From a virus (Duplodnaviria > Heunggongvirae > Uroviricota > Caudoviricetes): a stretch of 11,988 nucleotides of DNA. Where the stretch lies: positions 1 to 11,988 of IMG/VR virus record IMGVR_UViG_2737471855_000016. One strand, written 5' to 3'. The notes under the pieces are model-generated. The model had not been told where the DNA came from and made no database searches. It worked only from the letters and a program-made list of their open reading frames with translations. Within the stretch, counting starts at the first letter, position 1. Every line of letters starts with the position of its first letter. Position numbers and translations under genes: made by a program. This document shows positions 8,944-11,552 of this stretch, piece by piece.

Positions 8944-9016
8944 GGTACTCCTGGTGGGGGTGGCCTGTCCACGGGGCGGGAGGGCGCGGAAAAAGGCGCA
9001 TTTTTTGATTTTTATG
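8944..9016 (+). repeat. Conserved ~70-bp G-rich intergenic element, copy A (paired with 11481-11552)
   Basis: About 85-90% identical by eye to copy B: CTCCTGGTGGGG..GGCCTG..CACGGGGCGGG..GGCGCGGAAAAA.GCGCATTTTT.GATTTTAT. It is followed by a CAC/CAT triplet run. Confidence 0.6.
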
Positions 9017-9368
9017 GCACCATCACCACCACTATAAGTTATTGATATGTTGAGAAATAAAAATTTTTAGTGTCGAATCAGGTTGTTTTTTGTTCATCAC
9101 CGGAACGTTCCCGAAAACATTTACAAAAAACAGGCGCAAAAAAAGCGCCCCCGATTGCTGTTACCGGAGGCGCTTTTACACGACAAAGGAGTTTTTATCG
9201 CCAGGATGACGAGTCTTAATACTGCTTCAATGGCAAAAATGCGTCAATAACTTTGCCTTTCTGAGAATAATCAGAAAAATCATAATCTGATTTTCAGGTA
9301 TAAAATGATTTATCTATTACTTTTATCGATCAATAATGATGCCCGTTAATCAAAACGGAGGCGGATTT

Positions 9369-9563
9369 ATGCCAGAGAACAACACCAGAAAGCCGGATAA
9401 AAGTGCCACGGTACACATAGACGCCGGAACTATGGAGAAGATCGAACGCTATCAGCAGTTCATCAAAGATAATCACCCGGGTATGCCAGTACCCACGAAA
9501 GGACAAATCACACGCAGCGCGGTTGAATACTGGTACAGGGCAACGTTAGGGGTCTGGCTATGA
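9369..9563 (+). CDS. Small hypothetical protein (64 aa; ORF-track start 9336 is an alternative), coupled to the capsid gene
   Basis: GGAGG lies 7 nt upstream of ATG 9369. Its stop overlaps the next start (ATGA at 9560-9563). A possible small DNA-binding or packaging accessory protein; no family confidently recognised. Confidence 0.55.
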   Translation: MPENNTRKPDKSATVHIDAGTMEKIERYQQFIKDNHPGMPVPTKGQITRSAVEYWYRATLGVWL

Positions 9564-11449
9564 AAACATGGTTTTCCATTAAGGCTATGGCAGATGTTGT
9601 CTATGTGCGCATTTATGACGAGATCGGCGGGTACGGTGTAAAAGCATCGGCACTTACTGACGAGATCAACGCGTGTGGTAATGCGTCTGAAATCCATCTT
9701 CGCATCCATTCACCTGGTGGCGACATCTTTGAAGGGCTGGCTATCTATAACGCCCTGAAAAATCATCCGGCAAAGAAAATTGTACACATTGAAGGCATGG
9801 CGGCTTCTATGGCCTCGTTTATTGCCATGTGTGGCGATCACATCGTTATGCCTGAAAACGCGATGATGATGATACATGCCCCCCGTGGTGTTACTGCCGG
9901 AGTGTCGGGCGACGTTCGCCGCTTTGCTGACCTGATGGACAAGCTGGGCGACACGATGGCGGAAACCTACGCCGGAAGAACGGGCAGGAGCAAACAGGAA
10001 ATCACCGCCATGATGGAGGCGGAAACCTGGATGGATGGCAATGAGTGTAAGGCTAACGGCTTCGCAGATGAGGTTATACCCGCGATTACAGCAATGGCCC
10101 GAATTGAATCAAAACGAATCGGAGATTTTTCAAATATGCCGGAAAAAATTAAAAGCATGATCAGCCAGAAAACTACCAGTGGCGAACAGGAACGACTTAA
10201 CGGCATCCGTGAATTGTTTGGCACGTTCAACGGAAGATATAACGACCTGGCTATAAGTTGTCTTGCTGATTCAGAATGTAGCGTTGAGAATGCACGCGAA
10301 CGCCTTTTACTCGCTATGGGTAAAGAATCAACGCCAACAAACAAAACCACCCCCGCAAATCTTTACTACGCGTACACGGATAACGGCAACATAACCGGCG
10401 ATGCAATGCGCCAGGGGCTTAATGCGCGTCTTGGTCACGAACGGGCCGAACGCGGTAATCCTTACGCCATGATGAGCCTTTTCGATATGGCACAGGCATC
10501 ATTAACCCATCGTGGTATAAGCACGGGCAGCTACGGCACACGCTCGCAGATAGTAAACGCGGCATTCACCCACAGCAGCAGCGATTTTACCGATATTCTT
10601 GCTGGTGGCGCTGAAAAATCAGTGCTTGCAGGCTGGGAGCACAGCGGCGAAACATTCCGCCAGTGGACGAAAAAAGGTTCCCTTTCAAACTTCCGGGAAG
10701 CCCGCCGCGTTGGTATGAATGGCTTCTCAACGTTAAACAAAGTGCCGGAAGGGGCAGAATATAAATACATCACCACCAGCGATCGCGGTGAACCCATCGC
10801 GCTGGCTACTTACGGGAATATTTTCAGCATTACCCGCCAGGCGATAATCAATGATGACCTTGATCAGTTATCAACGGTGCCAATGGCTATGGGCCGTGCA
10901 GCATCAAGAACGGTGGGAAATCTGGTTAATCTGGTGCTTACAGGCAACGTAAAACTTTCTGACGGAATAGCGCTGTTTGACAAAAAACACAGCAACCTGA
11001 TTGAAGCAGGACTGACAACACCGGGACTTAGTGCAGCACGTCACCTGATGCGCACACAGAAGGACAAAAATGGCGAAGTGCTGAATATTGCGCCTAAATT
11101 CCTTTTAGTTCCGGCAGCACTGGAAGATCGCGCGTTGCAGATGATTAACTCAACCGCACCTTTCGGGGCTGATAAAAACAGCGGGATCTTTAACCCGTAT
11201 CACAAGCTACTTGATATCATCGTCGATCCCCGCCTTGATGATATCAGCGAAAAACAATGGTACATGCTTTCCGCACAGGGAACGGACACAATCGAGGTGG
11301 CTTATCTTGATGGCAATGACGAGCCTTACCTTGAACAGCAGGAAGGTTTTATCGTTGACGGCGTGGCCTGGAAAGTCCGTATTGATGCAGGTGTGGCAGC
11401 TCTGGATTATCGCGGTATGGTCAAATCAGGCGGGACAGATTCACTATGA
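9560..11449 (+). CDS. ClpP-like prohead serine protease fused to an HK97-type major capsid protein
   Basis: The N-terminal ~180 aa carry ClpP-family motifs (IHSPGGDIFEGLAIYNA...EGMAASMASFIAMCGDHIVMPENAMMMIHAP), with Ser and His in canonical positions. The C-terminal ~380 aa have a major-capsid-like pattern (ATYGNIFSITRQAIINDDLDQLSTVPMAMGRAASRTVGNL...). One uninterrupted 629-aa ORF. Confidence 0.88.
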   Translation: MKTWFSIKAMADVVYVRIYDEIGGYGVKASALTDEINACGNASEIHLRIHSPGGDIFEGLAIYNALKNHPAKKIVHIEGMAASMASFIAMCGDHIVMPENAMMMIHAPRGVTAGVSGDVRRFADLMDKLGDTMAETYAGRTGRSKQEITAMMEAETWMDGNECKANGFADEVIPAITAMARIESKRIGDFSNMPEKIKSMISQKTTSGEQERLNGIRELFGTFNGRYNDLAISCLADSECSVENARERLLLAMGKESTPTNKTTPANLYYAYTDNGNITGDAMRQGLNARLGHERAERGNPYAMMSLFDMAQASLTHRGISTGSYGTRSQIVNAAFTHSSSDFTDILAGGAEKSVLAGWEHSGETFRQWTKKGSLSNFREARRVGMNGFSTLNKVPEGAEYKYITTSDRGEPIALATYGNIFSITRQAIINDDLDQLSTVPMAMGRAASRTVGNLVNLVLTGNVKLSDGIALFDKKHSNLIEAGLTTPGLSAARHLMRTQKDKNGEVLNIAPKFLLVPAALEDRALQMINSTAPFGADKNSGIFNPYHKLLDIIVDPRLDDISEKQWYMLSAQGTDTIEVAYLDGNDEPYLEQQEGFIVDGVAWKVRIDAGVAALDYRGMVKSGGTDSL

Positions 11450-11453
11450 CAAC

Positions 11454-11477
11454 AAGGCGGCACCAGCCGCCTTTTTT
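11454..11477 (+). terminator. Rho-independent terminator after the capsid gene
   Basis: 8-bp stem AAGGCGGC / GCCGCCTT with an ACCA loop, followed by TTTTTT. Confidence 0.8.
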
Positions 11478-11480
11478 GCG

Positions 11481-11552
11481 GGTCCTCCTGGTGGGGTGGG
11501 CCTGAACACGGGGCGGGCGGCGCGGAAAAAAGCGCATTTTTGTGATTTTATC
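11481..11552 (+). repeat. Conserved ~70-bp G-rich intergenic element, copy B
   Basis: Direct repeat of 8944-9016, again placed immediately 3' of a strong terminator and followed by a triplet run (CATCATCATCAT). Confidence 0.6.

Follow-up and report, generated by a model that had tools for sequence, protein, structure and literature searches.

Two copies of a G-rich element in an 11,988-nt stretch of DNA (hereafter the window; positions 1 to 11,988 of IMG/VR virus record IMGVR_UViG_2737471855_000016) are very likely complete lambda-type cohesive-end (cos) sites, each with a cosQ position, a cosN, and a cosB, which lie on a satellite of the phage-inducible chromosomal island (PICI) type and through which a helper terminase would package the island, with the two copies probably serving two helper specificities. 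The window is identical to the stretch between pgrR and mppA in Escherichia coli RM10410 (NZ_CP042350.1), and we refer to the upstream and downstream copies of the element as copy A and copy B. The homology of the element with cos of lambda and of other phages, the position relative to the small terminase gene terS, the restriction of the homology to cos, the linkage of cosB with classes of the small terminase protein (TerS), and the class of each copy were all computed. An earlier note, made from the letters of this stretch alone, had offered a menu of functions for the element; the packaging site on that menu is now strongly supported, and the late promoter or activator-binding site and the antitermination or RNA-processing site found no support.

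Alignment with lambda cos and occurrence in phages

Alignment placed the two copies of the element at 8944–9016 and 11481–11552, just where they had been described (coordinates are those of the window and features are on the + strand unless stated). The copies are alike, although the term near-identical that had been applied to them is slightly generous for 63 matches in 74 aligned columns (85%). Downstream of the core, the identity between copy A and copy B is ≈53%, and the longest exact stretches that they have in common are 11 to 12 nt. The core, which consists of CACGGGGCGGG, a spacer of 3 or 4 nt, and CGCGGAAAAA, has two exact occurrences in the window (at 8970 and 11507), with an expectation of 0.00 from 200 shuffles. 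The stretch between GGGCGGG and CGCGGAAAAA (8981–8985 in copy A and 11518–11520 in copy B) ranges from 2 to 5 nt in length across sampled, otherwise near-identical cos sites, and differs even inside one cosB class. In many records, short open reading frames (ORFs) annotated as hypothetical proteins run over the element, including 11385–11588 of the window (RefSeq WP_122993917.1), mEp460, and other phage records; these ORFs are probably spurious rather than genes, because indels of 1 to 4 nt occur inside the conserved core.

Aligned to the junction of the lambda right and left ends, both copies are colinear with lambda cosQ-cosN. With slashes marking the aligned nick positions, lambda reads GGGTCCT-N23-CG/GGGCGGCGACCT/CGCGG and copy B reads GGGTCCT-N24-CG/GGGCGGGCGGCG/CGG, whereas copy A reads AGGTACT...ACG/GGGCGGGAGGGC/GCGG and departs from the canonical sequence at the cosQ position. 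By this alignment, the cosQ-position heptamer is AGGTACT, not GGGTCCT, in copy A (8943–8949) and is GGGTCCT, identical to lambda cosQ, in copy B (11480–11486). The putative cosN of copy A, CG/GGGCGGGAGGGC/GC (8972–8987), is colinear with CG/GGGCGGCGACCT/CG of lambda and would have its top-strand nick at 8973/8974; that of copy B, CG/GGGCGGGCGGCG/CG (11509–11524), has both flanking CG dinucleotides and would be nicked at 11510/11511. The earlier note had recognized a lambda cosN match in copy B and not in copy A, but the left half CG/GGGCGG stands at the aligned position in both copies (8972–8979 and 11509–11516), and the claimed contrast is therefore wrong. The sequence CACG/GGGCGG is found in both copies and in all sampled homologues, and variability starts after GGGCGGG; lambda-like phages conserve the CG at the nick and the GGGCGG left half, with a variable right half (bp 7–12), and have both CG dinucleotides flanking cosN (PMC4669245). 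The 7-bp cosQ is highly conserved and needed for termination, and initiation does not need it (PMC4669245). In a lambda-like cos, it is expected ≈25 to 30 bp before cosN. The G-tracts and the GCGC-GGAAAAA-GCGC motif, which had been pointed out as a potential G-quadruplex and a mini-hairpin, are simply the conserved right flank of cosN.

The element recurs in other genomes, and a sensitive search returned its 81-nt core from 2,399 of 5,426 complete E. coli genomes. For a census of sites, we ran a pattern scan of IMG/VR together with reference loci, which gave 121 usable sites; an exact GGGTCCT cosQ is present in 114 of these, as it is in copy B and not in copy A. In 91 of the 121 sites, the start of a DUF1441 TerS gene lies +164 to +208 from the motif, and the large terminase gene terL and the portal gene come next. 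Three prophages and a phage (L002–L004 and L007, respectively) have the element ≈150 to 190 bp upstream of a DUF1441 ORF, with terL, portal, and a protease/capsid fusion gene after it, and the phages VT1-Sakai and CP-1639, which carry Shiga toxin (Stx) 1, have the order Rz, element, terS (a 158-aa DUF1441 ORF), and terL. Lambda cos occupies this same place, between the lysis genes and terS. Among species-representative genomes, the exact core pattern matched 43 times; five matches are genuine and the others are chance matches lacking cosQ and terS. The five come from E. coli, E. ruysiae, Pectobacterium colocasium, and metagenome-assembled genomes labeled Veillonella parvula and Bacillota bacterium, the last two of which are likely mis-binned because their TerS proteins are 99% identical to E. 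coli types. The chromosome of P. colocasium CSR2 (L147, 7423–7447) contains a prophage cos whose cosQ position reads AGGTACT and which precedes a terS-like ORF; our initial view of the copy A cosQ as dead for termination was softened by the presence of the same heptamer there.

With positions counted from CACGGGG, copy A (8943–9105) matches seven phage contigs of a class that we call X, as well as CP-1639 and 1720a-02, at ≈90% identity (89.8% for the latter two) across the 167 nt between −33 and +134. Copy B (11480–11670) is 87 to 89% identical over 195 to 198 nt, from −33 to +162, to VT1-Sakai, eight Stx2 phages, and seven contigs of a class Y. Cross-matches, copy A with class Y and copy B with class X, are confined to a common core of ≈100 nt. 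In both cases, the homology begins at cosQ (−33) and ends just before the phage terS start, and what the island and the phages share here is limited to the cos site itself. Thus, the Stx1 phages CP-1639 and VT1-Sakai and the Stx2a and Stx2d phages of Shiga toxin–producing E. coli (STEC) have a whole cos 87 to 90% identical to copy A or copy B, but in these phages cos is followed by terS, terL, and portal, whereas in the island copy A is followed by a small 75-aa ORF (ORF75) and a capsid fusion gene and copy B by a 93-aa ORF (ORF93). We found no cos annotation or experimental mapping in the VT1-Sakai, CP-1639, and Stx phage records examined. The same pair of an A-type and a B-type site recurs in four independent island contigs (L027, L052, L059, and L123). 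The sequence TTTACAAAAAA, noted earlier in the leader after each copy, is indeed present at 9118–9128 and 11658–11668; that of copy B is part of the stretch with VT1-Sakai homology, shortly before the would-be terS start, and that of copy A lies beyond the end of the CP-1639-class homology, so that copies A and B share something that has no counterpart in their closest phage relatives.

cosB and the specificity of the small terminase

Beyond cosN, each copy follows the subsite order and spacing of lambda cos: a putative specificity element occupies the R3 position (bp 46–65), and a candidate integration host factor (IHF) site and a further candidate R-like box come after it. The run of CAC/CAT triplets that had been reported 3′ of each copy is present at 9019–9033 and 11553–11566; counted from the putative nick, it spans bp 46–60 in copy A and bp 43–56 in copy B and overlaps the position of lambda R3, which is bp 50–65 (PMC9026076). 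In copy A, the R3-position element CACCATCACCACCAC (9019–9038, bp 46–65 from the putative nick) includes the triplet run and is followed at a lambda I1-like position by an IHF consensus site, TATCAATAACTTA (9035–9047, − strand), a perfect match to WATCAANNNNTTR that is also present in cos sequences of mEp460-type phages. A distal conserved box, GTTCATCACC (9091–9100), has a T-run before it, keeps its offset in phage cos regions, and could be an element of the R2/R1 type. In copy B, alignment places the R3-position element TCATCATCATCATG at 11553–11566, upstream of an IHF-like site with one mismatch to the consensus, AAACAACAGGTTA (11572–11584, − strand), on the far side of which lies an R2-like inverted repeat of the R3-position element, AAGATGATGATT (11605–11616; inverted 9-mers with at most one mismatch). 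Judged by sequence, inverted TCATCATCA and TGATGATGA repeats thus stand on either side of the IHF-like site, and this order fits the R3-I1-R2 layout of lambda cosB, in which R2 is inverted (PMC9026076). The likeness to lambda is therefore one of layout, together with the identity of cosQ in copy B and of the CG/GGGCGG left half; the cosB sequence itself is unrelated to the lambda R sequences, and the cognate small terminase is a DUF1441 protein that is ≈21% identical to Nu1 in a multiple alignment and does not belong to the Nu1 family.

The sequence at the R3 position sorts the sampled sites into cosB classes, and the cosB class agrees with the class of the TerS N-terminal region in 91 of 91 phage sites (alternative start codons merged). 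Between the classes that correspond to copies A and B, TerS identity is 53% for residues 1 to 70 and 92% for residues 71 to 158. Between lambda and phage 21, cosB specificity has changed and the TerL partner has been kept (PMC9026076), and the divergence of the TerS N-terminal region relative to the C-terminal region is the pattern that would be expected for such a change of cosB specificity with a constant TerL partner. By its sequence, copy A is of the CP-1639/1720a-02 class (cosB class 5), and copy B is of the class of VT1-Sakai and the Stx2a and Stx2d phages (cosB class 4).

Proposed packaging by two helpers and alternative explanations

In the mechanism that we propose, a lambdoid helper with a DUF1441-type small terminase would replicate in the cell, and the island would excise and form concatemers. 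The helper TerS would bind the R elements of cosB, with IHF probably bending the intervening DNA, and TerL would then nick cosN, close to 8973/8974 for copy A and to 11510/11511 for copy B, to give 5′ overhangs of ≈12 nt that begin with GGGCGG. Translocation would proceed rightward, toward cosB, until a downstream cosQ-cosN is cut, and termination could occur at copy B for either helper. Cleavage, the nick positions, the direction of packaging, the use of both copies, and the packaged length are what we infer. Because copies A and B carry different cosB specificities, the island can probably be packaged by two helper lineages whose terminases, to judge from the TerS comparison, differ only in the DNA-binding N-terminal region of TerS. 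A further step, which we put forward tentatively and at somewhat less than even confidence, is that the pair is a deliberate dual-helper device in which copy A serves the TerS of CP-1639-type Stx1 phages and copy B that of VT1-Sakai/Stx2a/Stx2d-type phages, so that two Stx phage lineages would mobilize the island and perhaps suffer interference from it, with copy A perhaps used for initiation only and copy B always for termination. Four island units (≈44.5 kb) match the 44- to 46-kb genomes of these phages, a length that fits the multimer packaging reported for the PICI EcCICFT073 (PMC6092414); alternatively, smaller heads might be assembled from the capsid fusion that the island encodes.

EcCICFT073 carries two experimentally functional cos sites (PMC6092414, PMC6739421; Fillol-Salom 2018, 2019), and a two-cos island in a Gram-negative host is thus not new as such. 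In EcCICFT073 too, the two cos sites lie in the late zone, have cosQ and cosN like those of lambdoid helpers, and depend on the helper terminase for packaging (PMC6092414, PMC6739421). However, the cosB of EcCICFT073 is unlike that of its helper, and Rpp, a Nu1-like winged helix-turn-helix protein that the island encodes next to cos, redirects the TerS of the helper to cos1 (PMC6092414, PMC6739421, PMC9026076), whereas here each cosB is ≈90% identical to a phage cosB and the helper TerS is of a different family. No Rpp-like or Nu1-like protein was found in the window; Rpp-type redirection was considered and rejected, as neither ORF75 nor ORF93 matched a solved structure (those of Rpp and TerS among them), a Pfam or NCBIfam family, or Nu1. 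The sites look like plain mimicry of two helpers, not redirection. SaPIbov5, a staphylococcal island of the cos type that encodes the capsid homologue Ccm, is likewise a satellite that carries its helper's cos and a diverged major capsid homologue (PMC5052747, PMC8569155), but its host and phage lineage are unrelated and it uses HNH-dependent cos phages.

Several observations weigh against the reading of both copies as working cos sites. Cleavage of either copy, and of the sites in related phages, is predicted from homology only. Copy A is without the canonical cosQ, and its cosN is 1 nt longer than that of the closest phage sites, with the result that a 12-nt overhang would not be followed by the conserved CG; because of the noncanonical cosQ and this length change, copy A could be impaired or weakened. 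Copy A also has no clear R repeat, and its R-element assignments are weak; because cosB and terS are adjacent, a part of the cosB–TerS association is linkage and not recognition. The linear record LR595868.1 (mEp460_4F5), which starts and ends inside the element, gives a weak hint of physical ends, but its termini map 4 nt upstream of the nick position aligned with lambda, and 3 nt of cosN are missing from the record; the termini may be points where the assembly was cut instead of true ends. Capsid genes are reported to be dispensable for helper-assisted transfer of Gram-negative PICIs generally (PMC10111431). Finally, E. coli RM10410 has no other copy of either cos at megablast sensitivity, and no resident matching helper prophage is therefore seen.

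The departures of copy A bear most directly on an alternative that we regard as unlikely, although the best of those considered, in which one copy only is at work. The remaining copy, probably copy A, would be left over from the capture of late genes (cos through protease/capsid), would be decaying, and would confer no second specificity. The rarity of a departure from GGGTCCT (7 of the 121 sites lack it) and the 1-nt change in cosN length are in keeping with decay, yet the ≈90% identity of copy A to a living phage class spans all 167 nt of cos, cosB and the perfect IHF site among them, and AGGTACT, given its occurrence in the Pectobacterium prophage cos with a terS-like ORF, is perhaps a working variant, in a subsite that is in any case unnecessary for initiation (PMC4669245). 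Related islands with a single cos and no capsid cassette (L029) fit an insertion of the cassette that duplicated cos, PICIs have been proposed to capture helper late-gene clusters and later to lose most of them (PMC10111431), and cos2 of EcCICFT073 is dispensable for transfer (PMC6092414); against such a history stands the retention of the A-plus-B pair in several island contigs.

A second alternative, which starts from the surroundings of the element, is that it controls the capsid operon and the downstream ORF at the level of transcription or RNA, as a late promoter, an activator site, an antiterminator, or a processing site. As the earlier note had described, each copy lies just 3′ of a strong intrinsic terminator, a hairpin with a T-run that folds with a z score of about −5: one at the end of ssb (8917–8941; −15.8 kcal/mol, z −5.0) and one at the end of the capsid gene (11454–11477; −15.1 kcal/mol, z −4.7), neither of which is listed by a consensus terminator scan. 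An AT-rich leader follows in both copies, and the island genes beyond each terminator need some means of expression. In phages, however, the element lies inside the late operon, where a promoter is unneeded, and no terminators precede it, and consequently terminator plus element, taken earlier as a paired functional arrangement, is not a functional unit; the terminators are part of the island's ssb and capsid genes and not of cos. When the entire window was compared with Rfam at E ≤ 1, the element drew no match, and the only matches were chance miRNA-like ones on the iterons of the replication origin; an RNA fold is not borne out, with z scores of −0.99 to +0.53 against shuffles for both copies on both strands and with different structures for copies A and B. 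Promoter-like matches are at the chance level (5 found, 5.7 expected), and core indels of 1 to 4 nt suit a nuclease site with a variable right half and not a structured RNA. On this evidence, a control site is highly improbable. Even less credible is the idea that the two copies are mainly recombination sites for the gain, loss, and exchange of the capsid cassette between islands and phages: islands of the family do carry different cosB classes at the same positions, with or without the cassette, so that exchange happens at or near cos, but homologous recombination usually needs more than shared stretches of 11 to 12 nt, no features that a recombinase would recognize were found, and any conserved site with variable flanks should be just as open to modular exchange.

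The island, its relatives, and the meaning of two cos sites

The island that carries the two cos sites is ≈11.1 kb long, has a 10-bp repeat (TGCTTCCTTT) at its ends, and encodes a tyrosine integrase, an AlpA-like helix-turn-helix protein, a Bro-N protein, an Icd-like protein, a DUF4222 protein, a D5-type primase, SSB, ORF75, a ClpP-protease/major-capsid fusion, and ORF93. Gram-negative PICIs are organized as int, alpA-like, (Bro), primase with a downstream origin, and a late zone, are unidirectional and ≈10 to 20 kb long, and are without a full morphogenesis set (PMC10111431, PMC6092414); the window has this gene organization and holds a PICI-type satellite. Just downstream of the primase gene, dense direct and inverted GGTGAACAGTT and AACTGTTCACC repeats (7949–8163) are probably the iteron-type replication origin of the island. 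In the early zone, a 65-nt direct repeat of 85% identity (4036–4100 and 4903–4967) lies among small minus-strand genes of the YlcI/YnfO family.

Between the two cos sites, ORF75 (9336–9563; phrog_4934), which precedes the capsid gene in related islands, is followed by the gene for the fusion of a ClpP-like prohead protease and a major capsid protein (9560–11449; Pfam and NCBIfam matches). The closest phage homologues of this fusion are 51 to 52% identical over the full length and are exactly the phages with this cos type. Downstream of copy A and upstream of ORF75, two mutually exclusive hairpins that share GCGCC (9132–9177), AGGCGC-A7-GCGCC and GCGCCCCCG...CGGAGGCGC followed by TTTT, form an attenuator-like arrangement, and the first of them scores as a minus-strand terminator. 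Downstream of copy B, ORF93 (11707–11988; phrog_1561) starts at +201 from CACGGGG, which is the offset of the terS start in phages. A search of species-representative genomes returned no relatives of ORF93, and a role of ORF93 or of the 99-aa DUF4222 protein as the PICI regulator RgdR was checked and not established.

Seven sister islands (L015 [from 10763], L027, L029, L050, L101, L109, and L124) have directly after their second cos a DUF1441 TerS-like gene of their own, encoding ≈150 aa that are 66 to 71% identical to phage TerS; this gene goes with a cosB class of its own, and an ORF93 homologue comes after it. The island in the window has no such gene, and its ORF93 starts at the same +201 offset. 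The TerS-like gene may encode a TerS for the satellite itself or, in the manner of Rpp, a factor that retargets DUF1441 terminases. In three loci (L015 [92–3170], L096, and L106), an integrase 97 to 99% identical to that of the window lies downstream of a phage cos-terS, and direct inspection of L015 showed that the island interrupts terL after about codon 333. L015 thus matches the helper-embedded configuration of PICIs (PMC10111431), whereas the island in the window is at the chromosomal pgrR-mppA site.

What gives the two cos sites a wider interest is their membership in two phage specificity classes. The reason for a second, different cos site in some PICIs is a published question (PMC6739421, 2019), and the dual-helper reading, if true, would answer it for this island family, with two cosB specificities and no Rpp as a simple explanation of two cos sites in one PICI. 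The DUF1441 family, in turn, gains a functional context as a lambda-like small terminase. As cos sites decide which phages can spread a satellite, and as the copies described here can be assigned by sequence to the Stx1- and Stx2-phage terminase classes of STEC, a helper range can be predicted for an island that is common in O157:H7, O145:H28, and O121:H19 genomes. Such a satellite might modulate the production of Shiga toxin phages and, if the dual-helper reading is true, might interfere with two lineages of them.

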